The position numbers and the translations under genes are program-made. Positions 1,902-15,867 of a stretch of DNA of 17,082 bases are shown one piece after another (the stretch's first letter is position 1; each line of letters starts with the position of its first letter). Origin of the DNA: a virus (taxonomy: Duplodnaviria > Heunggongvirae > Uroviricota > Caudoviricetes); the IMG/VR virus record IMGVR_UViG_2651869694_000011; one strand, written 5' to 3'. The notes below the pieces were generated by a model. It was not told where the DNA came from. It saw only the letters and a program-made list of their open reading frames with translations, and did not search any database.

Positions 1902-1962
1902 GGCTATCACTCCGGAACGCGCCAGTTGCAGAATATCAACGACAACTGGCGACGGTTGAACA

Positions 1963-4434
1963 TTAAAAATCAGCCTGACTCGGGATCAGTTTTTGCCAGA
2001 TAACTGAAACGTATTTTGCCTGGTAACGGGCGTCATCAAGTGCATTATGGCGCTCACCTTCGAATGGAATAGCCGTTCTGGCATCGAAGTCTATGGCTTT
2101 CCCCAGCTCAACGATTGTGCGTACATCGCGATCGTTGTAGTAACGCCACGGGCAGGGGATCCCCTGCCGTTCGTATGAACGGCGCAAAATCGTGTTGTCG
2201 AAGTTGGCTCCATTTCCCCAGACCTGAACAAAAAATTCACCGGAGTTTTCGTCGATAAATTCCCGCAATTGTAACAGTGCATCATCTAACGGGATTTCAT
2301 CGGTCATAATGGCAGATTGCGCTTCGCGTGATTGCTTAAGCCACCATTTAATGGTGTCCCGATCAATGACTCCGCCAGCAGTTTCCAGATCGATAGTCTT
2401 ACTAAATTCCGGTCCCATATCTCCGGTTTGCGGATCGAAAAATATTGCACCTATTGAGATGATCGGGGCATCAGGATTTTTTCCCATGGTTTCAAGGTCG
2501 ATCATTAGATGGTCACACGTCCTGCTGGTGGATGTGATTTCTTGATGACCGTTCACCTTAATTGAGTGATCTGCCGTCTCGCCAGTTTCATTATCGCTAT
2601 CGTGATGCTGATTGCCGCCAGTGTTCTCCTTGTGTGGATGTTCAGCGCCTTCCATTTTCTCCGGATCATCTTCCTGAACTTCAACCTGATACTCTTCATC
2701 GAATGTTTCCTGGTATGTTGCGTCGCCCATCACTGCGCCACAATCAGGGCAGTTGCCGCCGCCGGTCTGACCGCAGGCGGTGCAGACCTTTTCCACTTCC
2801 TGTTGCACCACTGGTTCAGGCTGTTTCGTTTCTGGCTCGTTTTGTAACGCATTTGGGCTGTTTTGTTCCGCTTTCTGGTAGTTCCGTTCCGATTCATGCT
2901 GGTTCTGGTTCACAGAATCGCGGGTCTGGATCCCCTTAACCCATTTCGGATCATTCGGGTCGCTAATCCCTGCAACAAATTCACCACGAGAGACAGCAAG
3001 CAACTCATCGGCGTCAGGCTGGCTGATATTGGCTGCCTGCATAATTTTGTTTACTTCGTCAGCGGTAACTTTTACCGACCCTGGTTGTGCGGTCGTGTCA
3101 GATGCACCAGTATTTTGTTGTGAACCTGAGTATGTACCGTTTTTGCGGGCGAAATATTCTTCTTTCGTGATTTCAGTAGCCCCAGCAGACAGCGCCTTAT
3201 CCAGACCAGAAAGTTTGTTTGCGCGACCGTATTTTTCGCCATCCTTGTCGGTGAAGAGGAAGTAGAACGGCCCCTCACGCTCTACAGATGGTTCGACTTC
3301 CACTTTGCATTCGGTTTTTTCGTTGTCCGGAATTGCCGTTTCCACTGCATCAGTTTCTGGTACTGGCGACGAGAGAGTATCAGTTGCGCTCTGATTTGTT
3401 CCTTCATCTTCAAACACGCCCTTTGTAGTCAGGTATTCAGTAATGTATTTGTTCAGTGCCACAGGGTCTTTGTGAATGTCGATCGGACGTTCACGGACAA
3501 GGCCAAAAATAGTCTGGCGGTCGTAGCGAAGGGCATCAGGCTGTTTGCGCATTGATGCCGAGATACGCTTCCAGTCTTCGCGGTCGTTGTCGATAACTTC
3601 ATTTTTTGCCCAGCGATGGATGCTGCCGTCAATGTTTCCGGCATCCACATCACCAGGCCAGAGAGCGTAGGCCAGTTCGTCATCCAGTGTTTTCCATGTC
3701 TGCTTGTATTCGCGATGAATGGCAGCAATGACCGGGTTGATTTTTCCTGTTGAATTTTCAGTGTGCTGTTGATTGGCTCTGGCGCGGGCGAGATCAACAA
3801 CAGACGTGTATTTTCCGGCTTCCTTGCGTTCACCTTCGCGACGTTTTTTCCAGATGCGCATCTCTGCCTGAATTTCGGGCCATTTGGCACCAGGCTTACA
3901 TTTATGCTTAACCCACCCGATGGCATGCAGCTTAAGCTCCGGATACATAGCGTTAACTTCTGGCATTTTCATCAACGCTTCAACGATATGGCCGTCGAAT
4001 GTTGCCATGTCTTCCTGCAACAATTCCTGTGCGCTAATCACCATATCAACAGTGATGTTTTCACATGTGTCGAACTTAACCATGACAGCGTTCTGTACTT
4101 CAGGGGCTAGGTTGTCAAAAGTGACGTTCATCGGATCGGATTCAGTCTCAACCGGGACAAAAGAAGCAGACTCCTCATCCCAGCGGTTTTCCTGCATATA
4201 TTCAGCATCCCATGAATCGAGGGCAGGGCGGGGTATGCCAGGTTTATCCTCGCAGACAATAAATTTATAAGCGCAGTCCTGAGCAGCCGGATAATGTTCC
4301 AGGAATTGCCAGTGAAATTTTGCGCGGGCGCGACATTCATCACCGGCTTCAATGGCAGTGGCTACAGCGACTGCACCTTCTTCCTTTATTGCCTGTTCGT
4401 CCGGAATGGCGGCGCAAATAAAGACTTTACTCAT
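1963..4434 (-). CDS. Large prophage exonuclease: RecE-like N-terminal/central region fused to a C-terminal DnaQ-like (DEDDh) 3'-5' exonuclease domain
   Basis: 823-aa ORF. The C-terminal ~200 aa carry the three DEDDh motifs (IDLETMG; WGNGANFDNTIL; HNALDDARYQAKY). The central segment LLAVSRGEFVAGISDPNDPKWVKGIQTRD matches a conserved stretch of E. coli RecE as I recall it. CTACGQTGGGNCPDCG is a CxxC...CxxC zinc-ribbon-like motif. GAGGT lies 4 nt upstream of the ATG. Confidence 0.85.
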   Translation of the reverse strand: MSKVFICAAIPDEQAIKEEGAVAVATAIEAGDECRARAKFHWQFLEHYPAAQDCAYKFIVCEDKPGIPRPALDSWDAEYMQENRWDEESASFVPVETESDPMNVTFDNLAPEVQNAVMVKFDTCENITVDMVISAQELLQEDMATFDGHIVEALMKMPEVNAMYPELKLHAIGWVKHKCKPGAKWPEIQAEMRIWKKRREGERKEAGKYTSVVDLARARANQQHTENSTGKINPVIAAIHREYKQTWKTLDDELAYALWPGDVDAGNIDGSIHRWAKNEVIDNDREDWKRISASMRKQPDALRYDRQTIFGLVRERPIDIHKDPVALNKYITEYLTTKGVFEDEGTNQSATDTLSSPVPETDAVETAIPDNEKTECKVEVEPSVEREGPFYFLFTDKDGEKYGRANKLSGLDKALSAGATEITKEEYFARKNGTYSGSQQNTGASDTTAQPGSVKVTADEVNKIMQAANISQPDADELLAVSRGEFVAGISDPNDPKWVKGIQTRDSVNQNQHESERNYQKAEQNSPNALQNEPETKQPEPVVQQEVEKVCTACGQTGGGNCPDCGAVMGDATYQETFDEEYQVEVQEDDPEKMEGAEHPHKENTGGNQHHDSDNETGETADHSIKVNGHQEITSTSRTCDHLMIDLETMGKNPDAPIISIGAIFFDPQTGDMGPEFSKTIDLETAGGVIDRDTIKWWLKQSREAQSAIMTDEIPLDDALLQLREFIDENSGEFFVQVWGNGANFDNTILRRSYERQGIPCPWRYYNDRDVRTIVELGKAIDFDARTAIPFEGERHNALDDARYQAKYVSVIWQKLIPSQADF

Positions 4435-4526
4435 TTTGTTTTACCTCATTACAGATTTAAGGGTGAACAAATCCCTGCCATTGCTGGCATATAAGAATGA
4501 AACCGGATATTTATTACGGAACTGTT

Positions 4527-4718
4527 TTAAAGACCTGCCGGGATTTCGTTATTATCCTGGTGAATAACTTTATCGACCGGGTAACAGTTACCGGGAATTT
4601 TCTGTTCGGTTGCTGCAGTCACACACTCCTGCATTGTCCTGTGAACACTGACTGCAATATCAACTGGCTCTCCGGAAACAAGAAAAACTGTCAGAACAAG
4701 TGCAAATGCTGTATTCAT
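4527..4718 (-). CDS. ydfD: YdfD-like small membrane protein (63 aa)
   Basis: Start ATG overlaps the dicB stop in an ATGA arrangement (plus-strand tcat at 4715-4718). N-terminal hydrophobic segment MNTAFALVLTVFLVSGEP. Sequence and length match my recollection of Qin prophage YdfD. The track ORF 4527..4772 is a longer in-frame extension. Confidence 0.7.
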   Translation of the reverse strand: MNTAFALVLTVFLVSGEPVDIAVSVHRTMQECVTAATEQKIPGNCYPVDKVIHQDNNEIPAGL

Positions 4719-4903
4719 TGCCAGCATCCTTTTTGTATCGGACGTAAACGGGCCAGCATTGAAAGAATGCATATTTTATTTAATAACTCCCGTTCGTGTT
4801 TTCTCTTGTTAATGGCATCTTCAGTAAATACAGGGTTACTGATAGTGACACCAATTTCAAAACAACCTTCAGACGTATTAACGTTTGGTAATAACGTTTC
4901 CAT
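4715..4903 (-). CDS. dicB: DicB-like cell division inhibitor (62 aa)
   Basis: Internal ATG of track ORF 4715..5008 gives METLLPNVNTSEGCFEIGVTISNPVFTEDAINKRKHERELLNKICILSMLARLRPIQKGCWQ, near-identical to E. coli Qin DicB as I recall it. dicF lies immediately upstream, as in Qin. Confidence 0.85.
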   Translation of the reverse strand: METLLPNVNTSEGCFEIGVTISNPVFTEDAINKRKHERELLNKICILSMLARLRPIQKGCWQ

Positions 4904-5072
4904 TATCGCGTCCTCAACAATGAATTTTGTGATGCGGTGCCTGGTGCCTCCAGGTGACGTTAACCAGTTAACAATTAACGCCGGATACAGAGAATCCCCC
5001 CATAACACTGTTTTTGGTTTTAACTGTTCCGCGTGCGCTCAGCCGCATTCACCGCATCACAAAATTCACTTT

Positions 5073-5130
5073 AAAAAGGGCGGCAGAGCAGTCACGGAGT
5101 AAAACTGATACCGCCAAACGTCACCAGAAA
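5073..5130 (-). ncRNA. dicF: DicF small regulatory RNA
   Basis: The reverse complement of 5073-5130 reads tttctggtgacgtttggcggtatcagttttactccgtgactgctctgccgccctttttaa, which matches the E. coli DicF sRNA sequence from memory, including the terminal hairpin and U-run. Position directly upstream of dicB is as in the Qin dicB operon. Confidence 0.8.
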
Positions 5131-5393
5131 ATTGATAACAGAGGGCGTTGCAGCGGGGTTGTCACTTAAGCGTATGGTCAACCTGACAACCCGGTGTCCT
5201 CAACGGGGGAAGGAATAACCCCGCCATACTTACCGCCGCGCCATTTCGCGGATTGCCACAACCAGAAGCGCACGGTCGAATTAAATTTAACGACGACCTA
5301 TACAGAGAGACTAACTTCGCCGTGCGCTTTCGTGTTATGCCCTGACTTTTCAGGGTAAATTAACCTGTGGAAACCTGTTTTTACTGGCGCTAA

Positions 5394-5546
5394 TCAGTTA
5401 GCGTTTCTTGCTAACCAGCGATGCGCGCCAGCTTCGGTTTTAAACGTTTTACTTCTGGTATACGTCATCGCGGTAAACGTGCCGTCGTGGTTGGGGAATA
5501 CTCCGCACACCAGAGATTCATTGTTGCCAAGATTGAGCATATCCAT
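5394..5546 (-). CDS. Candidate small ORF (50 aa) in the early leftward operon, possibly YdfA-like
   Basis: Minus-strand ATG at 5546 with GAGGT 4 nt upstream. Translation MDMLNLGNNESLVCGVFPNHDGTFTAMTYTRSKTFKTEAGAHRWLARNAN. Below the ORF-track size cut-off. Identity to YdfA is unverified. Confidence 0.35.
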   Translation of the reverse strand: MDMLNLGNNESLVCGVFPNHDGTFTAMTYTRSKTFKTEAGAHRWLARNAN

Positions 5547-5726
5547 GTTGACCTCATTTACCCTTAACGCCGGGTCGCGGAACTAAAAACCTGCTGCGCT
5601 GTTATACAAAGTGTTCCCGCCGTCATGTTCATACGCCTCGGGCTGGCTACTTAACCCCTGACCACTGCCGGGTAACTCGAGGTATTGCCCGACGTTCTGT
5701 GGGGCGAGGTAGGGTGGTATGTAATA

Positions 5727-5770
5727 AATCTAAAAGTATTTAGTTTTTCAGTCAAGATAAATCTAGATTA
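5727..5770 (-). promoter_or_regulatory. Candidate leftward early promoter (pL-like) with OL-like operator palindromes
   Basis: Minus-strand -35 TTGACT (plus coords 5750-5755) and -10 TAGATT (5727-5732) with 17-bp spacing. ATCTAAAAGTATTTAG (5728-5743) is near-identical to the OR palindrome at 6534-6551. A second palindrome AATCTAGATT sits at 5760-5769. Confidence 0.45.
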
Positions 5771-5774
5771 ATTT

Positions 5775-5800
5775 AAAAAAAAAGGTCGGCATTGCCGACC
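5775..5800 (-). terminator. Rho-independent terminator downstream of the repressor gene
   Basis: Hairpin ggtcggc-att-gccgacc (5784-5800) preceded on the plus strand by an A9 run (U-run on the minus strand), 22 nt past the cI stop. Confidence 0.65.
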
Positions 5801-5821
5801 TCAAGTAAAGGACGTGGCGGG

Positions 5822-6469
5822 TTATAAGTTGAACTGTACACCTTTTGCTACGGCAACAATTTTACACTCTGGTGTAAGTAAGGATGACTGATAGCGTGGA
5901 TTGAGAGGGCTTAAATACACAAGCTTCCCATCAATAACTAATTTCTTTATAGTCATAGATGGTTCATTTTTAAGCGGATCCGGAACTATTACAGCGACGA
6001 TGCTGCCATTTTTATAACTTTCTCCTGGCCTTAGGATCACAGTAGCACCAACTGGGATACTCGGTGATCCTGATGGGTTATGCATTGTGTCATCAGGCAT
6101 TGAAACGGCAAAATCACCTTCCTCGACATCAAAGAATGTGGTGATCCTATCGACATTTCCCATTGTTTTCTCTCCTTTTAAGATTAGGAAAGAAATCGCC
6201 TCACCCCACGAAAGGTAGGGGATCTTGGTGCCTGAGGTACTTTGTACAAAAGATAATTCAGGAGACGATACTCCATATAGGAGATAGGACTCAGTAGTTC
6301 CTAATGCCTGGGCTAACTTACTTAGAGCTTTGCTACCTGGTTCGTTTAGATCTTTCTCCCAGTACCCTATAGTAACCCCAGTCACGCCTGAAAGCTTACC
6401 CAGTTCTACTTGGGTCAGCCCCTTATCTTTTCTAAGTCTCTTAAGCCTGATGCCAAGGCTTTCCATCAT
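5822..6469 (-). CDS. CI-like phage repressor: N-terminal XRE-type HTH plus C-terminal S24 (LexA-like) peptidase domain
   Basis: HTH region GLTQVELGKLSGVTGVTIGYWE. C-terminal domain aligns with lambda cI (AVSM vs GNSM catalytic Ser; IKKLVIDGKLVYLSPLNPRYQ vs [21 protein letters not shown] with catalytic Lys). AGGAG precedes ATG ATG at 6469/6466; the track start at 6481 is a TTG. Confidence 0.9.
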   Translation of the reverse strand: MMESLGIRLKRLRKDKGLTQVELGKLSGVTGVTIGYWEKDLNEPGSKALSKLAQALGTTESYLLYGVSSPELSFVQSTSGTKIPYLSWGEAISFLILKGEKTMGNVDRITTFFDVEEGDFAVSMPDDTMHNPSGSPSIPVGATVILRPGESYKNGSIVAVIVPDPLKNEPSMTIKKLVIDGKLVYLSPLNPRYQSSLLTPECKIVAVAKGVQFNL

Positions 6470-6481
6470 TTTCTCCTGCAA

Positions 6482-6563
6482 ATTGAATATAAATTATTTT
6501 AGATTGCATTGACCTAAAAAAAATTATCTTGTAATCTAAAAATACTTAGATTTAGGAGGTAAA
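6482..6563. promoter_or_regulatory. Divergent immunity promoter/operator region (pRM/pR/OR equivalent)
   Basis: AT-rich 82-bp interval between divergent repressor and cro-like genes. Perfect inverted repeat ATCTAA-N6-TTAGAT at 6534-6551. Candidate pR -35 TTGACC (6509-6514) and -10 TAATCT (6532-6537). GGAGG precedes the cro-like ATG. Confidence 0.5.
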
Positions 6564-6791
6564 ATGCGAGTTGATGAACTTGTCCAGTTTTTTGGTTCTG
6601 TTCAGAGGGTTGCCGATTTTTATGGGATAACCCGCGAAGCTATTTACATGTGGCGTAAGCGTCCTGGTGAAACAGTTCCGAAGGGGAGGGCTGCGGAAGC
6701 TGCTGCATACTCCAAGGGGAAATTATCTTTGAACCCAGAACTTTACAAAAAGAAGGATACCACTCAGGGCGAAGGAAAGGGGGATTCATGA
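6564..6791 (+). CDS. Cro/DicC/YdaS-like small HTH regulator
   Basis: 75-aa ORF divergent from the repressor, with a strong RBS (aggaggtaaaATG). Motif FGSVQRVADFYGITREAIYMWRK parallels DicC (FGSKTKLAQAAGIRLASLYSWK) as recalled. Confidence 0.8.
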   Translation: MRVDELVQFFGSVQRVADFYGITREAIYMWRKRPGETVPKGRAAEAAAYSKGKLSLNPELYKKKDTTQGEGKGDS

Positions 6792-7213
6792 AAATCAAAC
6801 ATGAGCACATCCGCATGGCGATCAATGCCTGGGCCTATCCGGACGGTGAGAAAGTTCCTGCAGCTGAAATAGCCCGGACTTATTTCGAGCTGGGGATGAC
6901 GTTCCCGGAACTGTACGACGACAGCCATCCGGAAGCCCTGGCTCGTAATACCCAGAAAATTTTCCGTTGGCTGGATAAAGACACCCCTGATGCTGTTGAA
7001 AAAATTCAGGCTCTGTTACCGGCGATCGAAAAGGCAATGCCGCCTCTGCTGGTGGCCCGTATGCGCAGTCACAGCTCTGAATATTACCGTGAGATCGTCG
7101 AACGGAGGGATCGGCTGGTGAAAGATGTGGATGATTTTGTCGCAGCGGCGATCGCCTGGGGCACCCTGACTAACAGTGGTGGTCAGCCAGGTAATGCTGT
7201 TGTCGTGCATTGA
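6788..7213 (+). CDS. ydaT: YdaT-like protein (CII-analogue regulator of Rac-type immunity regions)
   Basis: 141-aa ORF whose ATG overlaps the cro-like stop (ATGA). The sequence MKIKHEHIRMAINAWAYPDGEKVPAAEIARTYFELGMTFPELYDDSHPEALARNTQKIFRW matches my recollection of Rac YdaT. SD aaggggga upstream. Confidence 0.8.
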   Translation: MKIKHEHIRMAINAWAYPDGEKVPAAEIARTYFELGMTFPELYDDSHPEALARNTQKIFRWLDKDTPDAVEKIQALLPAIEKAMPPLLVARMRSHSSEYYREIVERRDRLVKDVDDFVAAAIAWGTLTNSGGQPGNAVVVH

Positions 7214-7281
7214 CCAACAATATTCATGCCGGATTTCTTCCGGATGTTCGAGGGTAAAGTTCGGTATCAGATGAGGTGAGT

Positions 7282-8319
7282 ATGGCTAATGCCTGGCTCA
7301 GATTGTGGCATGACATGCCAAATGATCCCAAATGGCGAACCATTGCCAGGGTCTCAGGACAGCCAATCGCAACAGTGATGGCGGTGTATATCCACCTTCT
7401 GGTGAGTGCGTCACGAAATGTCACGACATGTCACGGCGTGTCACTACGTGGTCACATTGATGTCACGACGGAAGATTTAGCAAGTGCGCTTGATGTGACG
7501 GAAGACGTGATTGATTCAATTTTGCATGCAATGCAGGGGCGAGTTCTGGATGGTGATCTTATTTCCGGATGGGAAAAACGCCAGGTGATGAAGGAGGATA
7601 ACGGTAATGTTTCGCAAACCGCAAAATCCCCGGCAGAGCGCAAGAGAGCGCAGCGGGAGCGGGAAAGACTGCGGAAGCAGAACACTGATTGTCACGATGA
7701 GTCACGACGCGTCACGCATATGTCACGACAAATCACGACAGATACAGATACAGATAAAGAATTAAACCCCACACATAACGCGCGCATGCGCGAGAGTGCT
7801 ACGACCGGTGAGTTGAATGACGCGTCGTTGCAGACAGCCGAACCTGAATACCTGGACGGCCTGAGCGAACCGATCGGGAAATTTCCGATGACTGGAGTCT
7901 GGCAACCGTCGCCGGATTTTCGACAGCGGGCAGCAGTGTGGGGTATGGCTCTGCCTGAGCCTGAGTTTACACCTGCTGAGCTTGCCGCATTCCGGGATTA
8001 CTGGATGGCGGAGGGGAAGGTTTTCACGCAGGTTCAGTGGGAGCAGAAATTTGCCCGCCACGTGCAGCACGTCAGGGCACAGGTAAAACCAGTCAGCAAG
8101 GGGGTAAGCCATGCAGCACCAGGTGGCACCGCATCACGGGCAGTTCAGGAAATCCGGGCTGCACGCGAACAGTGGGAACGTGAAAACGGATTTATCAGCA
8201 ACGGAAACGGCCTGGAAGCTGTGGGAGCTTATGGGGGAGGTGTATTCGAACCGCTGGACTCAGAAGAACGGGGCTGCGCCGTCGAAACTCTGGATTGCTC
8301 AGATTGGCGCGATGACTGA
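7282..8319 (+). CDS. Replication initiator, lambda O-like / DnaT-like replisome organiser, carrying origin iterons in its coding sequence
   Basis: 345-aa ORF from the ATG at 7282 (GAGGTGAG upstream; the track start 7276 is a GTG). Two clusters of 10-bp-phased GTCACG repeats inside the gene. Followed by a P-like gene, as in lambda O-P. Confidence 0.8.
   Translation: MANAWLRLWHDMPNDPKWRTIARVSGQPIATVMAVYIHLLVSASRNVTTCHGVSLRGHIDVTTEDLASALDVTEDVIDSILHAMQGRVLDGDLISGWEKRQVMKEDNGNVSQTAKSPAERKRAQRERERLRKQNTDCHDESRRVTHMSRQITTDTDTDKELNPTHNARMRESATTGELNDASLQTAEPEYLDGLSEPIGKFPMTGVWQPSPDFRQRAAVWGMALPEPEFTPAELAAFRDYWMAEGKVFTQVQWEQKFARHVQHVRAQVKPVSKGVSHAAPGGTASRAVQEIRAAREQWERENGFISNGNGLEAVGAYGGGVFEPLDSEERGCAVETLDCSDWRDD
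7408..7470. repeat. Iteron cluster A: six direct repeats of GTCAC(G/T/A) at ~10-bp phasing
   Basis: GTCACG at 7410, 7420, 7430 and 7462; GTCACT at 7440; GTCACA at 7451. Confidence 0.6.
7689..7766. repeat. Iteron cluster B: five direct repeats of (G/A)TCACG at 10-bp phasing, followed by GATACA repeats and an A+T-rich stretch (candidate origin)
   Basis: GTCACG at 7691, 7701, 7711 and 7722; ATCACG at 7732; then gatacagatacagataaagaattaaa (7741-7766). Confidence 0.6.
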
Positions 8320-8773
8320 ACAGCAAATCCGGCAGATCTGCCGTCGGTGCATGGACCGCTGCCGGGCGGGTGAAACGTGGCCTCCGGATCTGGCTGAGTT
8401 TGTGGCGTTGATTTCGGAGAGCGGGGCAAATCCATTTGGCCTGACGGTGGATGCCGTGATGGAGGAATACCGTCGCTGGAGGAATGAATCCTGGCGGTAC
8501 GACGGGAGTGATAAATACCCGTGGCCACAGCCGGTGCTGTACCACATTTGCCTCGAGATGCGTTCAAAGGGGATTGAGCGCCAGATGACCGAAGGGGAGT
8601 TAAAACGGCTTGTGGAAAGGCAGCTGACGAAATGGGCAAAGCATGTTGGTAATGGCCTCAGTGTTCCGCCAGTCCGGCGACAACTGGCAGCACCCAAACG
8701 CCCGCCAGGGCCAACGCCAATTGAATTGCTGAAACAGGAATATGAGCGCCGGAAGGCGGCCGGTTTTGTCTGA
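8111..8773 (+). CDS. Lambda P-like replication protein (DnaB helicase loader family)
   Basis: Aligns with lambda P from memory: [18 protein letters not shown] vs PSPGQFVAWCREEASVTAG, and [16 protein letters not shown] vs SYPWKSNAHYWLVTNL. The ATG at 8111 has a good SD (aagggggtaagccATG) but overlaps the O-like gene by ~200 nt; alternative starts at 8231 and 8312. Confidence 0.7.
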
Positions 8774-8807
8774 GTTGAGAAGTAATTTTTACCGGGAGGA
8801 AAATTTA

Positions 8808-8960
8808 ATGGAAACCGTTTTTGACGCACTGAAAGCACTGAAAAAAGCCTCGTCGCACGAGATTGCAGCCCGTCTTGAAATCAGCCGTGACGATGCTGTT
8901 ACCGAACTCTGGAAGCTGAAGCGTCGTGGCGAAGCTGATAATGTGGTGGCTGACGAGTGA
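8808..8960 (+). CDS. Small hypothetical protein (50 aa), possible winged-helix fold; may be the 5' part of a frameshifted longer gene
   Basis: Strong RBS (GGGAGG then 8 nt to ATG at 8808). Protein [50 protein letters not shown]. The fold assignment is an inference. Confidence 0.55.
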
Positions 8961-9495
8961 GGCAACTGAAGCGGCCCCAAAAACCACTGCAGAGATGCTG
9001 ATTAACGCGATTGAACAGCATGGTCCTCAGTCGGCTGACGAACTGGCGTTAATGTTCGGGATTACCTCCCGCCGGGCGAATTCATCACTGGCGATGGCTG
9101 TCAGCAAAGGTCGTCTGATTCGCGTAAATCAGGACGGTAAATATCGTTACTGCATACCGGGCGATAATTTACCGGCAGAGCCGAAAGCTGCATCGGTAAC
9201 GGAAACCGATGGTAAAGCCTTTCCTCAGCCGGCAGGTGTTGCGTTACCAGTCCGGGAAGCGGAAACACAGGAAGAAATTAAAACTGAAAGTGTGGCGGTC
9301 ACAGTGCAGTCACAGTCGTCGTTCATCAGAAAGCATCCGGATGGTCTGATTTTACCATCGCTGCATGTGGCTAACCGCGAGCTGCGCCGGGCAAAAGGTC
9401 AGGTTCAGAAGTGGGAGCGCTTATGCGCCGCGCTGCGGGAAATTAATAAGCATCGTGATGTCATACAGAAAATAACGACAGGAGATAACGGGTAA
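8941..9495 (+). CDS. Hypothetical protein; its N-terminal region repeats the pattern of the preceding small ORF
   Basis: ORF in the +1 frame relative to 8808..8960, overlapping its last 20 nt. Contains [45 protein letters not shown], similar in pattern to the upstream ORF. Start is uncertain (GTG 8926, ATG 8941 or ATG 8995). Confidence 0.5.
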
Positions 9496-9516
9496 TTTTT
9501 ACAGCAGGGTGATGAT

Positions 9517-9741
9517 ATGAAAATCAGATATCATGATTTCGGCCCCGTGTCACATATGCTTATTTCCAGTACGGTGCTGGAAACAAGAAAACATAATCAC
9601 ATACTGGATATGCTGCGTCTTGCTGACCCGTATCTGGTAATAAACACCAGTGGAATTTTCTTTCTGAGAAGCACTGTGTCAGGAAAAACATCGCATGTGC
9701 TTCGGGCATATAAAACAGCAGTGCGGGAGGAAGGAGAATGA
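9517..9741 (+). CDS. Hypothetical small protein (74 aa)
   Basis: First ORF of a run of four co-directional ORFs with 4-nt start/stop overlaps. Modest RBS. Confidence 0.5.
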   Translation: MKIRYHDFGPVSHMLISSTVLETRKHNHILDMLRLADPYLVINTSGIFFLRSTVSGKTSHVLRAYKTAVREEGE

Positions 9742-10094
9742 GCGAGATTAACTATCAGGAGCTGCGTGTTGAGCTGGGAGCAGCAAAAAAACGCATAGAA
9801 GAGCTGGAGGCTAATCGTGTGGTGCTTGAGGTGGAAAATGAGAGGTTGAAACACGCAATGGCCGTAGCCCTTGAGCATATATCCGTCACAGATGCAGGAC
9901 AGGCAGGTGTCGCTGCAATGATTATCTATGATGCCATGTACCACAGTGAAAAAACTGACCCCTACGCTTTTCTGGCAGAATTGCGGGCGCAGGGTGTGGA
10001 GATGGTGCGCGAACATCCAGCAATCAAACTTTGCTCTTTGACGCACATATGTGACGAGTTAGTCGCAGAGCTTCGCAAAGGAGGCAACAAGTGA
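9738..10094 (+). CDS. Hypothetical protein (118 aa) with a probable N-terminal coiled coil
   Basis: Strong RBS (ggaggaaggagaATG). ATGA overlap with the upstream ORF. Heptad-like N-terminus ELRVELGAAKKRIEELEANRVVLEVENERLKHAM. Confidence 0.7.
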   Translation: MSEINYQELRVELGAAKKRIEELEANRVVLEVENERLKHAMAVALEHISVTDAGQAGVAAMIIYDAMYHSEKTDPYAFLAELRAQGVEMVREHPAIKLCSLTHICDELVAELRKGGNK

Positions 10095-10279
10095 GTAAAA
10101 CGAATCCGGGCTGGGCAAGGCCACTTATGGCGAAAAAACATCATTATTTTGCTGAAGGTGAAATAACAAGTATTTGCGGTGGGTGGATCTATTTTGGCAA
10201 TGAGCGTGAGCCGGATACATTCGAAAGTCCAGATGATTGTAAAAAGTGTCGTAGAAAATTAAATAAGGGGGGTAAATGA
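10091..10279 (+). CDS. Hypothetical small Cys/His-containing protein (62 aa)
   Basis: GTG start with SD AAGGAGG 7 nt upstream; GTGA overlap with the upstream ORF. Contains SICGG and DCKKCRRK. Confidence 0.6.
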   Translation: MSKTNPGWARPLMAKKHHYFAEGEITSICGGWIYFGNEREPDTFESPDDCKKCRRKLNKGGK

Positions 10280-10587
10280 GCGCAATTAAAGAAATGCCAG
10301 TGGAACGTAATGAATATGGCTGCTGGACGCATCCTGAATATGAAAAATTCTGTGATGGTCGGGAATATATTTCAACGGAAGAGTTTAACGCCTGGATGGA
10401 GAAAAATAATCTTCAGTGGGCTATCCGTAGTATGGATGAAGATGATTTTAATCTGGACGCAGATGGCCCTGATATTTCAGCATGGGAACCTGAGCGACCA
10501 GAAGGTGAGGGATGGTTTATCGGTTCGATACATGACACCGAAGATGGTCCTGTTTGTGTATGGCTGAGAAATAAGGCCGAAGCATAA
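10276..10587 (+). CDS. Hypothetical strongly acidic protein (103 aa)
   Basis: Strong RBS (aaggggggtaaATG). ATGA overlap with the upstream ORF. About 25 Asp/Glu versus about 9 Lys/Arg, with an acidic patch MDEDDFNLDADGPDISAWEPERPEGEG. Confidence 0.7.
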   Translation: MSAIKEMPVERNEYGCWTHPEYEKFCDGREYISTEEFNAWMEKNNLQWAIRSMDEDDFNLDADGPDISAWEPERPEGEGWFIGSIHDTEDGPVCVWLRNKAEA

Positions 10588-10713
10588 AGGCTATAAACCA
10601 ACAACTAAACACTGAAAATTTAAATCAGAAATGATTTTTATTAAATCCTTAACCGGAGGGATTCCTGCACCCTCAGAACATCAGGAGACCGCCCGAAAGG
10701 GCGGTAGTGAAAA

Positions 10714-11277
10714 ATGACTGAATTAACCAAAGAATGGCTACAGAACACGATTACCGGAATTGAGTCATCACGGGATGAAATACCGTTCGGACTCGATGAA
10801 GATCAAAACAACATGCTTACCGCATTAAAAATTGCACTGGCATCACTGGCATCAGTATCGGATGAACGGGCAGCCTATGAATTATTTATGGAGAAGCGTT
10901 TCGGGGAATCTGTAGATCGCCGCAGAGCAAAAAATGGCGATAGAGAATACATGGCATGGGATATGGCGCTTGGCTGGATTATCTGGTGTCACCGCGCCGC
11001 CATGCTTCAGGCTGGAAACTTTCGGGAAAATAAGGGTTCGTCAACCAATAATTTTCGGATAATCTCGGAAACGTCAACCAACTCTCCGGCAATCCCTGAT
11101 GAGGTGTTGTCCGCAATCCTGAAGGTCGCCAGGCTTCGTGCAGATTTCGATGCTTCTGAAGTGGACAGGCGAGGTATCGGTAGTTGTCTGGATGAGGCCG
11201 AGCAAGAACTTATCGTTACCATTAACGAATACGCCAGTCAGATCGCAGTAGAAGCGACACAGGGGGAGAACCAATGA
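10714..11277 (+). CDS. Hypothetical protein (187 aa)
   Basis: Long ORF with no competing frame. Preceded by a perfect 7-bp hairpin with GAAA loop (10688-10705) between an AGGAG motif and the ATG. Confidence 0.65.
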   Translation: MTELTKEWLQNTITGIESSRDEIPFGLDEDQNNMLTALKIALASLASVSDERAAYELFMEKRFGESVDRRRAKNGDREYMAWDMALGWIIWCHRAAMLQAGNFRENKGSSTNNFRIISETSTNSPAIPDEVLSAILKVARLRADFDASEVDRRGIGSCLDEAEQELIVTINEYASQIAVEATQGENQ

Positions 11278-11386
11278 GCCGGCCAGATGCATTTGCAGGC
11301 GTTGCTATAGCTATTGCTTTTCTAGTATATGTTATTTGTCGGTGGGGGTAAAAACGTTCGCCGGGATTCACACCAAGGGAGGGAAT

Positions 11387-11491
11387 ATGTCGGATGATAT
11401 TTCACTGGTAATGGAAGGCGCTCTGGCTGTTATTGCTGTTGTGGGTGTTTACTGCCTGGTTGTGTTTTTGATGGAGCGCCTGGGGAACTGA
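11387..11491 (+). CDS. Candidate small hydrophobic protein (34 aa, single predicted transmembrane helix)
   Basis: Not in the ORF track (too short). Strong SD AAGGGAGGG 3-5 nt before the ATG at 11387. Translation MSDDISLVMEGALAVIAVVGVYCLVVFLMERLGN. Candidate promoter upstream (-35 TTGCTA 11302-11307, -10 TATATG 11326-11331). Confidence 0.45.
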   Translation: MSDDISLVMEGALAVIAVVGVYCLVVFLMERLGN

Positions 11492-11531
11492 ATTCATTCC
11501 GTATGGGAATTCCCATATCGGGCAAAACGGT

Positions 11532-11559
11532 TTGCTGTAAAGCGAGAGTTAAGTAGAAT
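11532..11559 (+). promoter_or_regulatory. Candidate sigma70 promoter for the hok mRNA
   Basis: -35 TTGCTG (11532-11537), 16-bp spacer, -10 TAGAAT (11554-11559). The predicted transcript 5' end (~11563-11577) is complementary to the 3' UTR at 11940-11955. Confidence 0.4.
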
Positions 11560-11734
11560 TGCTGCGGGTGCTTGAGGCTGTCTGCCTCGGGCATGCCACC
11601 GTAAGGCAGACAGAGAAAAGCCCCAGTTAACATTACGCGTCCTGCAAGACGCTTAACATTAATCTGAGGCCCAATCTATGCTTCACAAACGTAGGTTAGC
11701 CTCTTACGCGCCGAAAGGCAAGGAGAAGCAGGTT

Positions 11735-11890
11735 ATGAAGCAGCAAAAGGCGATGTTAATCGCCCTGATCGTCATCTGTTTAACCGTCATAGTGACGGCA
11801 CTGGTAACGAGGAAAGACCTCTGCGAGGTACGAATCCGAACCGGCCAGACGGAGGTCGCTGTCTTCACAGCTTACGAACCTGAGGAGTAA
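11735..11890 (+). CDS. hokD: Hok/Gef family type I toxin (HokD/RelF-like, 51 aa)
   Basis: MKQQKAMLIALIVICLTVIVTALVTRKDLCEVRIRTGQTEVAVFTAYEPEE matches the Hok family and E. coli HokD as recalled. SD AAGGAGAAG 9 nt upstream. Track ORF 11678..11890 is an in-frame upstream extension. Confidence 0.9.
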   Translation: MKQQKAMLIALIVICLTVIVTALVTRKDLCEVRIRTGQTEVAVFTAYEPEE

Positions 11891-11958
11891 GAGACCAGGC
11901 GGGGGAGAAATCCCTCGCCACCGCTGATGTGTCAGGCATCCTCAACGCACCCGCACTT

Positions 11959-11985
11959 AACCCGCTTCGGCGGGTTTTGTTTTTT
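11959..11985 (+). terminator. Rho-independent terminator of the hok transcript
   Basis: Hairpin cccgc-ttcg-gcggg (11961-11974) followed by ttttgtttttt. Confidence 0.75.
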
Positions 11986-12057
11986 CTGGTCGTTCTGGTT
12001 TACAATCCATCCGTCAGCCTGAACAACTGGCACCTGCTGCGCCAGCAGAGAAAACAG

Positions 12058-12336
12058 ATGGCGCACGATACCAAATTTTACAATTCGGATAACTCTGCCG
12101 CCCCTGCCAGCAGGCACGGGCGGCGTTCTCATGCATTCAAATCTGACTGGTATCAGCACGACCCCTGCACCGAAGAACAGGCTGAATGGCTGATTCAGTA
12201 TTACCGCAGGCGCGGATACGAGGTTAAGAAAGCCCTCAGTCTCGATTATCGTCACTGGATAATCTCCGTCAGGCTTCCTTACTCCGAACGCCCACCGCGT
12301 CCGTCCCGCACATTCCAGCAACGCATCTGGAGGTAA
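12058..12336 (+). CDS. Hypothetical basic protein (92 aa)
   Basis: ATG at 12058 is the first start downstream of the hok terminator within track ORF 11929..12336. Weak RBS. The stop lies 2 nt before the DUF968 start. In Qin the gene between hokD and ydfU is rem, but identity is unverified. Confidence 0.45.
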   Translation: MAHDTKFYNSDNSAAPASRHGRRSHAFKSDWYQHDPCTEEQAEWLIQYYRRRGYEVKKALSLDYRHWIISVRLPYSERPPRPSRTFQQRIWR

Positions 12337-12337
12337 C

Positions 12338-13387
12338 GTGCGGGTATTACTTCGACCTGTTCTGGTACCGGAACTCGGGCTGGTGATCGTTAAGCCGGGC
12401 CGTGAATCCATGCCGGTATTCCACAATACCCGGGTACTGGTGGAGCCGGAACCGAAAAGCATGCGTAATCTGCCGTCCGGGGTCGTTCCTGCCGTTCGCC
12501 AGCCGCTGGCGGAGGATAAATCATTACTGCCATTTTTCAGCGACGAACGAGTGATTCGTGCTGCTGGTGGCGCTGGCGCATTGTCTGACTGGTTACTGCG
12601 CCATGTTAAATCCTGCCAGTGGCCACACGGCGATTATCACCACAGTGAAACCGTCATTCACCGTTATGGTACCGGCGCAATGGTGTTGTGCTGGCACTGC
12701 GACAACCAGTTGCGTGACCAGACCTCCGAATCACTTGAGCAACTTGCTCACCAAAACTTGTCAGCATGGATGATTGACGTCATTCGTCACGCAATGAATG
12801 GCACACAGGAGCGTGAATTATCGCTGGCTGAATTATCCTGGTGGGCGGCCTGCAATCAGGTGGTGGATGCACTACCTGAGGCAGTAGCGCGTCGTTCGCT
12901 GGGATTACCAGCGGAAAAAATCCGCTCCGTATACCGTGAGAGTGACATCGTACCGGGAGAACAGACAGCCATCAGCATACTGAAGCAGCGCACAAAAAAT
13001 ATTGCGCTGCCACTTCACGTCCACCAGCAACAAAATCCACCACAGAAAAAAACGGTTGTCAGTATCGCCGTTGATCCGGAGTCTCCTGAATCGTTCATGA
13101 GGCGGCCTAAACGTTGCCGTTGGGTTAATGAGAAATACACACGCTGGGTAAAGACACAGCCGTGTGCGTGTTGTGGTAAGCCAGCGGACGATCCTCATCA
13201 TCTGATTGGTCATGGTCAGGGCGGAATGGGAACAAAATCCCACGATATTTTCACGCTACCGCTGTGTCGGGAGCATCACAACGAGCTTCATGCGGATCCG
13301 CTGGCGTTCGAAGAAAAGCATGGTTCCCAGGTTGATTTAATTTTTCGTTTTCTTGATCACGCCTTTGCGACTGGCGTGCTCGGGTAA
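12338..13387 (+). CDS. DUF968 family protein with a C-terminal HNH-like motif (YdfU / phage P1 Ref-like putative nuclease)
   Basis: 349-aa ORF, GTG start with GGAGG 4 nt upstream. C-terminal motif QPCACCGKPADDPHHLIGHGQGGMGTKSHDIFTLPLCREHHNELH is characteristic of DUF968/Ref-type HNH proteins. Confidence 0.85.
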   Translation: MRVLLRPVLVPELGLVIVKPGRESMPVFHNTRVLVEPEPKSMRNLPSGVVPAVRQPLAEDKSLLPFFSDERVIRAAGGAGALSDWLLRHVKSCQWPHGDYHHSETVIHRYGTGAMVLCWHCDNQLRDQTSESLEQLAHQNLSAWMIDVIRHAMNGTQERELSLAELSWWAACNQVVDALPEAVARRSLGLPAEKIRSVYRESDIVPGEQTAISILKQRTKNIALPLHVHQQQNPPQKKTVVSIAVDPESPESFMRRPKRCRWVNEKYTRWVKTQPCACCGKPADDPHHLIGHGQGGMGTKSHDIFTLPLCREHHNELHADPLAFEEKHGSQVDLIFRFLDHAFATGVLG

Positions 13388-13399
13388 AAGAGGTGACTG

Positions 13400-13759
13400 A
13401 TGCTCATAGATTTGGTTTTACCTTACCCGCCGACGGTGAACACTTACTGGCGACGCCGTGGCAGCACATATTTTGTATCAAAAGCCGGGGAGCGTTATCG
13501 CCGGGCAGTGGTGCTTATTGTTCGCCAGCAGCGACTGAAATTAAGCCTGTCCGGACGGCTGGCAATAAAAATTATTGCAGAGCCACCGGATAAGCGTCGT
13601 CGTGACCTGGACAATATTCTGAAAGCACCGCTGGATGCGCTGACGCATGCGGGAGTGTTAATGGACGATGAGCAGTTTGATGAAATCAATATTGTACGTG
13701 GTCAGCCAGTATCTGGTGGACGGCTGGGTGTGAAGATTTACAAAATTGAGAGTGAGTGA
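13400..13759 (+). CDS. rusA: RusA Holliday junction resolvase
   Basis: 119-aa ORF. LPYPPTVNTYWRRRG and PDKRRRDLDNILKAPLDALTHAGVLMDDEQ match RusA motifs (E. coli RusA: PPSNNRYY and [30 protein letters not shown]). SD GAGGTGA upstream. Confidence 0.9.
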   Translation: MLIDLVLPYPPTVNTYWRRRGSTYFVSKAGERYRRAVVLIVRQQRLKLSLSGRLAIKIIAEPPDKRRRDLDNILKAPLDALTHAGVLMDDEQFDEINIVRGQPVSGGRLGVKIYKIESE

Positions 13760-13767
13760 GCGTAAAT

Positions 13768-14298
13768 ATGATATATCCGGAAATTACAGGCAAAAGCGGC
13801 GAACATTTACGCCTGAACACGCTGGAAGCAGTCTGGATCCAGGGGAAATTACGGATGTGGGGGCGGTGGTCGTATATCGGTGGGGGTAAATCCGGAAATA
13901 TGTTTAACCGGTTACTGGTTTCGAAAAAGCTGACGAAAACAGCAGTTAATGAGGTTTTACGCAGCATGAAGAAATCCGGGCTGGAAAAACCGGAACTTGA
14001 GGCATTTTTTCGGGATATGACCAGAGGGAAGCAGAAGAGCTGGTTGTCACATTGTACAGACACAGAGGCGTTGATTATTGATCGCGTTATCAGTGAGGTG
14101 CTTGGGGAATATCCCGGGCTAATCAATATTCTCCGGCAAAGGTACGAAGGACGGGGAATGAGTAAGAGAAAAATGGCAGAATGTTTAAATCGTACTCACC
14201 CGGAATGGTGTTTCAGCACATGTGAGAAACGTATTGCAGGTTGGTTAGCCGTGGCTGAACACATGCTTTATGTACCTATGCACGATTCATTTCGATAA
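13768..14298 (+). CDS. Putative late-gene antiterminator (Q-like); product assignment is tentative
   Basis: Sits immediately after rusA and before a promoter/terminator region and the tRNA genes, which is the canonical Q location. LRMWGRWSY weakly resembles the ERWGAWA motif of an E. coli prophage Q family. Start is either ATG 13768 or the upstream GTG 13756. Confidence 0.5.
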   Translation: MIYPEITGKSGEHLRLNTLEAVWIQGKLRMWGRWSYIGGGKSGNMFNRLLVSKKLTKTAVNEVLRSMKKSGLEKPELEAFFRDMTRGKQKSWLSHCTDTEALIIDRVISEVLGEYPGLINILRQRYEGRGMSKRKMAECLNRTHPEWCFSTCEKRIAGWLAVAEHMLYVPMHDSFR

Positions 14299-14392
14299 AA
14301 AAAGCTTGCTTTTTTACGCAGAAACAGCTTGAATTCCTGTAAGCTTCGCAAAGCTGTATCGCGAGGCGAAATGCAAGTTTTTTCGCACAAGG

Positions 14393-14419
14393 AAGCCACC
14401 GGAAGGTGGTTTTTTTGTG
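14393..14419 (+). terminator. Rho-independent terminator ~100 nt downstream of the Q-like gene (tR'-like)
   Basis: Hairpin ccacc-ggaa-ggtgg (14396-14409) followed by a T7 run (14410-14416). Confidence 0.6.
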
Positions 14420-14539
14420 TCCGTAATATACAGCAGCGCAATAAATTCGCTGGTGGTTATTAATACCGTTCTTTCAGGTTGCTGGCTTTTTCGACAAGAG
14501 TTATTGGTGTGTCACGTTAACCGGAAAAGGGAAAAAGAC

Positions 14540-14737
14540 ATGCTGAAACAGCAGGATATGACAGAAACCGCCAGAGTGGTGTTTAATGAATTAAGCGTTA
14601 CCGACCCGGCGACAGTCGGGGAGATTGCGCAGAATACTTACCTTTCACGCGAACGCTGCCAGTTAATACTGACCCAGCTGGTTATGGCGGGTCTGGCAGA
14701 CTATCAGTTTGGTTGTTACAGACGCCTTCAGTCCTGA
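14540..14737 (+). CDS. Hypothetical small protein (65 aa), possible HTH
   Basis: ATG at 14540 within track ORF 14417..14737. Sequence TVGEIAQNTYLSRERCQLILTQLVMAGLAD. The stop lies inside a strong terminator hairpin. Confidence 0.5.
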   Translation: MLKQQDMTETARVVFNELSVTDPATVGEIAQNTYLSRERCQLILTQLVMAGLADYQFGCYRRLQS

Positions 14738-14752
14738 AGGCTTTTTTATTTG
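14724..14752 (+). terminator. Rho-independent terminator
   Basis: 8-bp stem gccttcag / ctgaaggc (14724-14741) followed by ttttttatttg. Confidence 0.75.
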
Positions 14753-14855
14753 TGGTAAATGGGCGGCTGGTGGGTGTAAGGGGCACCCACCAGCCATCTG
14801 CTCATGCGTTGGGTTCACAAGCAAACCTCAGGCCCACTGCTTTGCGCAAAAGCAG

Positions 14856-15071
14856 AATGAGCCTATCGAAAAACCGGCAGAAATGTTGCAGCAGATAATC
14901 AGCGCAAGCAGTCGTCCGGGAGACCTGGTTGCAGATTTCTTCATGGGGTCGGGGTCGACAGTGAAAGCAGCGATGGCGCTGGGACGTCGTGCAACTGGCG
15001 TTGAACTGGAGACTGAACGTTTTGAGCAGACGGTGCGGGAAGTACAGGATTTAATCATTCGTAACGGATGA
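14856..15071 (+). pseudogene. 3' fragment of a DNA N6-adenine/N4-cytosine methyltransferase gene (retains motif I, lacks the catalytic motif IV region)
   Basis: C-terminal ~70 codons of track ORF 14709..15071: EKPAEMLQQIISASSRPGDLVADFFMGSGSTVKAAMALGRRATGVELE matches the HPTQKP...DPFxGSGTT SAM-binding region of beta-class MTases. No (D/N)PP(Y/F) motif upstream; the upstream ORF residues look unrelated. Confidence 0.6.
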
Positions 15072-15111
15072 GATTGCGGAGTTAATCACGCGTCGTTATT
15101 ATTCAGCAATC

Positions 15112-15187
15112 GGCCCTTTAGCTCAGTGGTGAGAGCGAGCGACTCATAATCGCCAGGTCGCTGGTTCAAATCCAGCAAGGGCCACCA
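15112..15187 (+). tRNA. tRNA with CAU anticodon, most similar to E. coli tRNA-Ile2 (ileX/ileZ type); could alternatively be annotated tRNA-Met
   Basis: Manual cloverleaf: acceptor GGCCCTT/AAGGGCC, D-arm GCTC/GAGC, anticodon loop CTCATAA, T-loop GGTTCAAATCC, 3' CCA encoded. One A-C mismatch at the base of the anticodon stem. Confidence 0.9.
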
Positions 15188-15267
15188 ACCGCCACTAGCT
15201 CATCAGGAAAGAACGTCACCCTGTGCGAGATTCGGAGTCCCCGATGGCGGTCCATTATCGGTATTCT

Positions 15268-15344
15268 GCGTTGTTAGCTCAGCCGGACAGAGCAATTGCC
15301 TTCTAAGCAATCGGTCACTGGTTCGAATCCAGTACAACGCACCA
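15268..15344 (+). tRNA. tRNA-Arg (anticodon UCU, reads AGA/AGG)
   Basis: Manual cloverleaf: acceptor GCGTTGT/ACAACGC, D-arm GCTC/GAGC, anticodon stem ATTGC/GCAAT with loop CTTCTAA, T-arm ACTGG-TTCGAAT-CCAGT, discriminator A plus CCA. Confidence 0.9.
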
Positions 15345-15662
15345 CACCACACTTATCTGCCCTGACTCTCTTTTGCGGGCTTTTTATTACAGGAAAGACA
15401 CCGGACAGTGAAATGTTAAATGCCTCACAATTCAGGCAGTTGACTGTTGCCTGACATGCTGAGCGTTTGTTAAAAAAATCCTGCATGATGAATCCCCCTG
15501 AGCGGCGGGGCATAATGACAGATGTTTGGTTGCGTATTGTATAGGCAAGTTGCGGATTCTGTCTGGTCATTGCAGAATTCACCGGGAGGCACCCGGCATC
15601 ATGCTGTATACAGAGATTAGGCATATATCCAGGCTTCTCATCGCAGGAGCCTTTTTACATGC

Positions 15663-15688
15663 AAAAAAAAGCCCGAGTGGGTTCGGGC
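15663..15688 (-). terminator. Rho-independent terminator oriented on the minus strand, with no annotated upstream minus-strand gene
   Basis: Plus strand shows an A8 run (15663-15670) then hairpin gcccga-gtgggt-tcgggc (15671-15688), which reads as hairpin plus U8 on the minus strand. Confidence 0.55.
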
Positions 15689-15748
15689 AACAGCATGAGA
15701 TACTTGCATTGTCATTTTTATCGTGTGGATTTTAACCAGGGTTTATAA

Positions 15749-15780
15749 GGCTGCGCAACTGCGCGGCCTTTTTCGTTTTG
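15749..15780 (+). terminator. Rho-independent terminator upstream of nanS-p
   Basis: 9-bp stem ggctgcgca / tgcgcggcc (one G-U pair) followed by tttttcgttttg. Confidence 0.7.
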
Positions 15781-15867
15781 CGGGCTGCGGTTCTCCTCTT
15801 TTGATTCTCCTTGTGGCCGGACCGTGGCCCGCAACTGTTGAGGAAAATCCCGGAAAGGGGAGGAATA

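Follow-up and report, generated by a model that had tools for sequence, protein, structure and literature searches.

Positions 8808-9495 of the window, as we term the whole 17,082-nucleotide stretch of prophage DNA analysed here, hold a single gene of the ydaW family that was broken by an 11-bp deletion in the genome itself. We consider loss of the full-length protein the most likely outcome, and no recoding event rejoins the two open reading frames (ORFs) into which the gene now falls. The features of the locus are these:

8808-9495, plus strand: the whole frameshifted gene of the ydaW family (DUF1627), 688 bp, against 699 bp and 232 codons in the intact allele
8794-8799, plus strand: Shine-Dalgarno sequence GGGAGG, 8 nt upstream of the native ATG at 8808, from its duplex energy with the 16S 3' end
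8808-8960, plus strand: ORF of the 5' fragment, by translation a 50-aa product (METVF...) with an ATG start and a TGA stop at 8958-8960
8940/8941, plus strand: deletion junction at which 11 bp (ACAAGGGGTCG) are missing, from alignment to the intact allele and re-insertion
8941-9495, plus strand: ORF of the 3' fragment, by translation 184 aa in the native frame, starting at native Met49 (MWWLTSE...)
8989-9153, plus strand: second winged helix (WH2) in the structural model, intact residues 65-119, pLDDT 91-96
9361-9492, plus strand: C-terminal long helix in the structural model, intact residues about 189-232 (~45 residues), pLDDT 88-94

Translation of the window confirms both ORFs, of 50 and 184 codons, at the coordinates given for them in the first-pass annotation. 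The 5' product consists of native residues 1-45 of a first winged helix (WH1; H1-b1-H2-H3-b2), followed by the out-of-frame residues VVADE and the TGA, while the 3' product carries the last wing strand of WH1 and a linker, then WH2, which a disordered linker connects to the long C-terminal helix. Relative to the 5' ORF, the 3' ORF is read in +1, with 20 nt shared by the two. When the gene is aligned with the intact allele of O157:H7, a single 11-bp gap separates them across 699 columns, and the other 688 of 688 positions are identical. The missing bases may equivalently be placed one base to the right, as CAAGGGGTCGA, the endpoints sharing a 1-bp microhomology, and there is neither a homopolymer nor a repeat around the deletion. 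Re-insertion of ACAAGGGGTCG yields exactly the intact 232-aa protein of O157:H7, which is encoded by the 699-bp CDS of O157:H7 PV15-279 named "DUF1627 domain-containing protein" (WP_000450610.1); the window gene is identical to WP_000450610.1 apart from the 11 bp. Codons K46-G47-S48 are removed and the frame is shifted by +1, such that the split falls inside the wing of WH1 and not between WH1 and WH2. The first-pass annotation had pointed to the single T at 8958, whose removal does fuse the frames into one ORF of 228 codons, but this base is not the lesion, which sits 17 nt upstream of it at 8940/8941. The frame break is a derived genomic 11-bp deletion within one gene of 232 codons. Its frameshifted state was already known: coordinates 8808-9495 are those of a feature called "DUF1627 domain-containing protein, frameshifted" (pseudogene) by PGAP in the complete genome NZ_CM136167.1, and the change is an ordinary frameshifting indel rather than a novel one.

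The identity of the gene is established by both its neighbourhood and its homologues. In the window it follows a DnaT-like gene (7282-8319) and P (8312-8773) and precedes small hypothetical genes. The wider order is constant, running from a cI-like repressor through cro, ydaT, a DnaT-like O and P to the ydaW-family gene and the small genes of the nin region, and it is shared by O157, the Rac prophage of K-12 and all loci that carry the deletion; Rac has the DnaC-like ydaV in place of P upstream of ydaW. No RNA family of Rfam falls within 8808-9495. The locus is one YdaW gene (DUF1627; PF07789, phrog_630), which a Rac/lambda-like E. coli prophage carries just downstream of its replication genes. 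At the protein level, the 3' ORF matches PF07789 with 264.6 bits (E 3e-79; gathering score 28.1 bits) over residues 24-178 and profile positions 1-155 of 155, and the intact protein with 263.7 bits over residues 72-226, the rest of the intact protein showing only weak winged-HTH matches in Pfam. Residues 1-47 of the 5' fragment match phrog_16668 and phrog_630 in PHROGs; together the two fragments cover positions 1-46 and 76-248 of the 253 in phrog_630, the intact protein (P0001) covers positions 1-252, and the phrog_630 matches range from E 1e-85 to 1e-112. The orthologue is named ydaW in phage records, as is b1361 of K-12. Instead of one uninterrupted ORF of about 230-240 codons, the window copy is split into 50 and 184 codons; it is a member of the YdaW family by descent, but a broken one.

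Comparison with orthologues, which had been proposed as a check for a single fused ORF, found the fused form and no orthologues made of two genes. Among 5.8 billion proteins searched, 2269 proved homologous, and nearly every one of those listed is a single ORF of 232-241 aa, carries the conserved motif GEADNKG(S/P)MWWLT and is named as a DUF1627 protein. The family is small (139 clusters in a filter-free search of 50%-identity representatives), and its members retain both domains in the full-length arrangement at identities as low as about 20-30%. Within a diverse alignment of 26 members Met1, Leu34 and Trp50 are invariant; of these, Trp50, the first of the two Trp in the MWWL strand that directly follows the deletion, is left in the downstream frame. 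These single ORFs, and the PGAP call on an identical allele, bear out the pseudogenising indel that the first-pass annotation had listed among its options. Shorter relatives of the gene exist as well. Separate PHROGs (phrog_16668, phrog_11856, phrog_29124 and phrog_1888) hold an N-terminal winged helix alone (59 aa), a C-terminal segment of 160 aa, one of 72 aa and a short form; phrog_1888 is a 118-aa form in which the N-terminal winged helix is joined to the C-terminal helix without WH2, and many representatives of 50-110 aa match residues 1-60 only. These short or partial families may reflect natural modularity, or they may stem from further broken copies. Two other E. coli alleles carry in-frame tandem duplications, of 13 aa inside WH1 (P0278) and of 49 aa covering the C-terminal helix (P0282), which suggests that the gene may be prone to indels or tolerant of changes in length. 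At 90% identity, the 50-aa fragment clusters under a representative of 476 aa (P0261), together with six further members of 476 aa; P0261 has no visible similarity to the fragment, and this grouping, which looks like a clustering artefact, was set aside.

The intact product is predicted to be a tandem winged-helix protein. A first AlphaFold model, for which the alignment was shallow (17 close homologues), was poor (pLDDT 59) and was replaced by an AF2 model built on the diverse 26-sequence alignment, with a mean pLDDT of 81.8. WH1 in this model comprises H4-11, b13-15, H16-23, H27-40, b43-46 and b49-52 (pLDDT 94-97), and WH2 comprises H65-75, H80-87, H91-103, b108-112 and b115-119. A disordered segment of about 45 residues separates WH2 from the C-terminal helix (H189-233), which in the alignment is the most conserved segment of the family (IPSF..PDDL..P...IS.EIRRTK..L..LE.LR) and is presumed to be an oligomerisation helix. 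It had been claimed that the two halves show the same sequence pattern. Pairwise, this does not hold: BLASTP gives no alignment of WH1 with WH2, and a Smith-Waterman comparison against 5000 shuffles is not significant (z = 0.68, p = 0.24). At the level of profiles and of the AlphaFold fold the likeness does emerge, HHalign giving a probability of 94.8% (E = 5e-8, 53 columns) against 1.8% and 0.3% for controls. The modelled product is therefore read as two successive, homologous H-b-H-H-b-b winged-helix units. WH2 has weak matches to HTH_24, TrmB, FeoC and MarR-like domains and one marginal sequence match in the PDB, the winged-HTH regulator 2d1h (E 0.015). The best PDB matches of Foldseek to the intact model are tandem winged-helix proteins (E 8e-5 to 1e-2, probability about 1.0), namely ScpB, SelB WH3-4, ESCRT-II, UFL1/DDRGK1, AlkX/YcaQ and MarR-like regulators. 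ScpB, SelB WH3-WH4, Vps22/Vps25 of ESCRT-II, AlkX/YcaQ and the MarR-like proteins share two consecutive winged helices with the predicted fold, but identity to them is only 12-20%, and as neither the geometry between the domains nor the C-terminal part can be superposed, TM-scores stay low, at 0.2-0.25. The likeness is one of shared fold and not of family membership, and it lends no support to kleisin binding, RNA binding or glycosylase activity. The intact product most probably forms dimers and serves in nucleic-acid binding or as an adaptor.

With respect to expression, the deletion takes out the beta-hairpin turn (K46-G47-S48) of the WH1 wing and shifts the frame at the same point. The native ATG at 8808 is preceded by a Shine-Dalgarno sequence of -10.3 kcal/mol, a strength that places it among the best 4% of plus-strand ATGs in the window. 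There is no Shine-Dalgarno sequence at ATG 8941, whose -1.9 kcal/mol is weaker than that of 69% of those ATGs, and the one at GTG 8926 is weak (-3.3 kcal/mol). Translation from ATG 8808, the only good ribosome-binding site, accordingly ends after 50 residues at the TGA of 8958-8960; the resulting peptide, deprived of the hairpin turn and of the last wing strand with its invariant Trp, would probably be unstable or inactive. The 184-codon remainder is open from Met49. Since Met49 has no Shine-Dalgarno sequence, its product would be made at a low level at most, by termination-reinitiation across the 20-nt overlap, a route that is likely to be inefficient. The likeliest outcome is loss of the full-length protein, leaving a recent pseudogene or split remnant in a narrow prophage lineage. 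That the downstream ORF is fully open and has no second lesion is expected of a young pseudogene, and a tolerated or functional split would fit it too.

The deletion is rare. With positions 8700-9600 as the query, megablast located the region in 2362 of the 5426 complete E. coli genomes searched, and 570 genomes cover at least 80% of the query. A single record among the 5426 genomes is 100% identical, the next-best records spanning 912 bp against 901 bp, and a 48-mer specific to the junction is present in one of the 5426. The one complete genome with the deletion is NZ_CM136167.1, from human faeces in Tanzania. It is distinct from the genome of the window and aligns to the window over 1919-17082 only, at 99.5% identity with 71 mismatches. 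An exact-sequence look-up returned the 50-aa product as indexed in 35 blocks, with 24 contigs read, and the 184-aa ORF comes next after the 50-aa ORF in every locus listed. Each of the split products is recorded on 12 contigs, whereas the exact intact protein is on at least 1000, and the frame break is present in no more than about 1% of alleles. Outside NZ_CM136167.1, the junction or its products occur on at least 12 further contigs, which come from isolates, metagenomes and assemblies of raw reads. The deletion loci that were fetched are 99.8-100% identical to the window. Of the 13 gene copies with the deletion that were compared, 11 are identical to the window and two, on metagenome contigs, differ from it by 1 and 2 SNPs. 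These three SNPs (1 synonymous and 2 non-synonymous, with codons read manually) all lie in the disordered linker and are too few for inference from dN/dS, and no further disabling mutation was seen in the 13 copies. The deletion thus represents an allele that is real, recent and of low frequency, within a narrow lineage of prophages.

Narrow as it is, this lineage is mosaic. The integrase module of NZ_CM136167.1 is unlike that of the window, which places the deletion allele in at least two mosaic prophages. Positions 1-1918 of the window, its integrase/excisionase end (int at 545-1663, minus strand), are unmatched in NZ_CM136167.1 and show 99.9% identity to prophages of, among others, O103:H2 12009. 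Two ENA metagenome contigs (L006 and L008) have an 89.8%-identical module downstream of about 11959 (window 11959-13611), and their P gene (window 8312-8773) is called as 140 aa against 153 aa, with one gap in the alignment to the window; these differences suggest that the mosaicism goes further or that a second small indel lies close to the overlap of O and P. Overall, the mosaic backgrounds of the allele number two or three at the least. From the several backgrounds, distinguished by the int modules of the window and NZ_CM136167.1 and by the downstream region of L006/L008, it follows that the allele has persisted long enough for recombination in its flanks.

This persistence bears on the first alternative to a broken gene, namely that the deletion created two functional genes, a truncated winged helix of 50 aa and a protein of 184 aa with WH2 and the C-terminal helix, which would be translationally coupled as ribosomes terminating at 8960 re-initiate at the AUG of 8941, 17-20 nt upstream. 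We regard such a split as unlikely. In its favour, the 184-aa ORF begins at a native Met in the native frame with its 20-nt overlap of the upstream stop, and it keeps the whole Pfam DUF1627 region; the 13 copies have gathered no visible disabling change and the allele has come to lie in more than one mosaic prophage. The family is itself modular, given the joining of N-terminal winged helix and C-terminal helix in phrog_1888 and the separate N- and C-terminal PHROGs. Against these points stand the missing Shine-Dalgarno sequence of ATG 8941, the absence from the 50-aa fragment of the last wing strand with the invariant Trp50, the rarity of the allele (12 contigs against at least 1000) and the fused form kept by all diverged orthologues, and the near invariance of the deletion-bearing copies provides no signal of selection either way. 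A more specific form of the idea, in which reinitiation yields a naturally domain-split YdaW, that is, a protein of WH2 plus coiled coil without WH1 whose activity would be altered or dominant-negative, strikes us as improbable. Were it true, such a domain-split YdaW might act, for example, in the reported blocking of the retron-Sen2 toxin by ydaW or in the regulation of the prophage, and its activity could account for the persistence of the allele across several mosaic backgrounds.

It is much less credible still that the real genome has the 11 bp and that sequencing or assembly lost them, another option that had been raised for this locus. Read support is not visible from a single window and indels are a common class of assembly error, but the loss of 11 bp from sequence that is neither repetitive nor homopolymeric would be untypical of platform errors, and the identical junction lies in the complete Tanzanian genome, which differs from the window elsewhere. 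The allele moreover recurs across many independent assemblies: contigs with the 50-aa product include at least 5 NCBI isolate assemblies, 4 ENA metagenome assemblies from different samples and 1 Logan read-set assembly, and the junction is found on one IMG/VR contig as well. Among the assemblies that bear the deletion are GCA_002485025.1, GCA_017117805.1, GCA_001283145.1, GCA_007646545.1, GCA_000258785.1 and those of strains BvCmsKSP044 and BvCmsKSP071; strain PRO_A-1443-6M-A_ESBL likewise carries the allele.

Least tenable of all, to the point of being negligible, is programmed +1 ribosomal frameshifting or transcriptional slippage that joins the frames into a full-length protein, which the first-pass annotation had favoured in its title. 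It has the geometry of the locus on its side, with a second frame at +1 and an overlap of 20 nt, and nothing further; as the frame break is derived and rare (single ORFs in essentially all orthologues; 1 of 5426 genomes) and the overlap holds no signal, we reject programmed recoding. The overlap, GAT AAT GTG GTG GCT GAC GAG TGA, has no prfB-like CUU-UGA-C motif, no suitably placed internal Shine-Dalgarno sequence, no X XXY YYZ heptamer and no hungry-codon motif, nor does a homopolymer of 4 or more bases precede its stop. Its final codons, GAC GAG TGA, make +1 re-pairing impossible, and a fused product would be without the K46-S48 hairpin, with out-of-frame residues standing where the strand with invariant Trp50 should be. 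A programmed +1 site would be expected to show a conserved frame break and a shift-prone P-site codon with an upstream Shine-Dalgarno-like stimulator, and neither is found here. With +1 frameshift genes of the prfB/RF2 type the locus shares only an upstream ORF that ends at UGA and a continuation in the +1 frame; unlike them, it lacks a frameshift conserved among orthologues, a slippery P-site codon of the CUU type and a Shine-Dalgarno sequence 3 nt upstream.

Beyond this gene, the window carries several RNA features, called at the Rfam gathering score: a DicF sRNA (5078-5129, minus strand), a sok antitoxin RNA (11566-11740, plus), an STnc100 sRNA (15454-15662, plus), the anti-GcvB sRNA AgvB (15664-15723, minus) and two tRNAs (15112-15184 and 15268-15341, plus), which are Ile and Arg tRNAs in a related record. 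The sok antitoxin RNA adjoins hokD (about 11735-11890). This set is typical cargo of EHEC-type lambdoid prophages. According to the annotation of a related complete genome, a partial pseudogene of a site-specific DNA methyltransferase that lacks its N-terminus lies at about 14862-15071 on the plus strand; if so, this remnant is another decayed gene in the same prophage.

Like the YdaW of the Rac prophage of K-12 (b1361) and the full-length orthologues in Rac-like, Stx and PPompW prophages, the window gene lies directly downstream of replication genes; its nucleotide identity to ydaW of phage Rac is about 79%, and the K-12 protein is a shorter form of 186 aa without the window's frameshifting 11-bp deletion. 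In the literature, ydaW is a predicted transcription factor (PMC9308461), K-12 ydaW was recovered in a genetic screen as a blocker of the retron-Sen2 toxin RcaT (bioRxiv 10.1101/2020.06.22.160242), and the gene also figures as a marker near the PasA/PasC sRNAs. A search of NCBIfam gave no match for function, and among the PADLOC defence models a match of 15.7 bits, at the level of chance, was the only one, which gives no ground for counting the gene among defence or anti-defence systems.

For the biology of the prophage the import of the locus is low, in that it adds one more decaying or variant accessory gene to an E. coli lambdoid prophage. A candidate for recoding can be dismissed, and the lesion is placed precisely at 8940/8941 rather than in a change of 1 nt at 8958. 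The deletion allele is a real lineage marker, carried by several isolates and metagenomes. For the family, the analysis describes YdaW/DUF1627 as a tandem winged-helix protein, as modelled, with a conserved C-terminal helix, and this provides a starting point for follow-up of the screen hit as a retron blocker.
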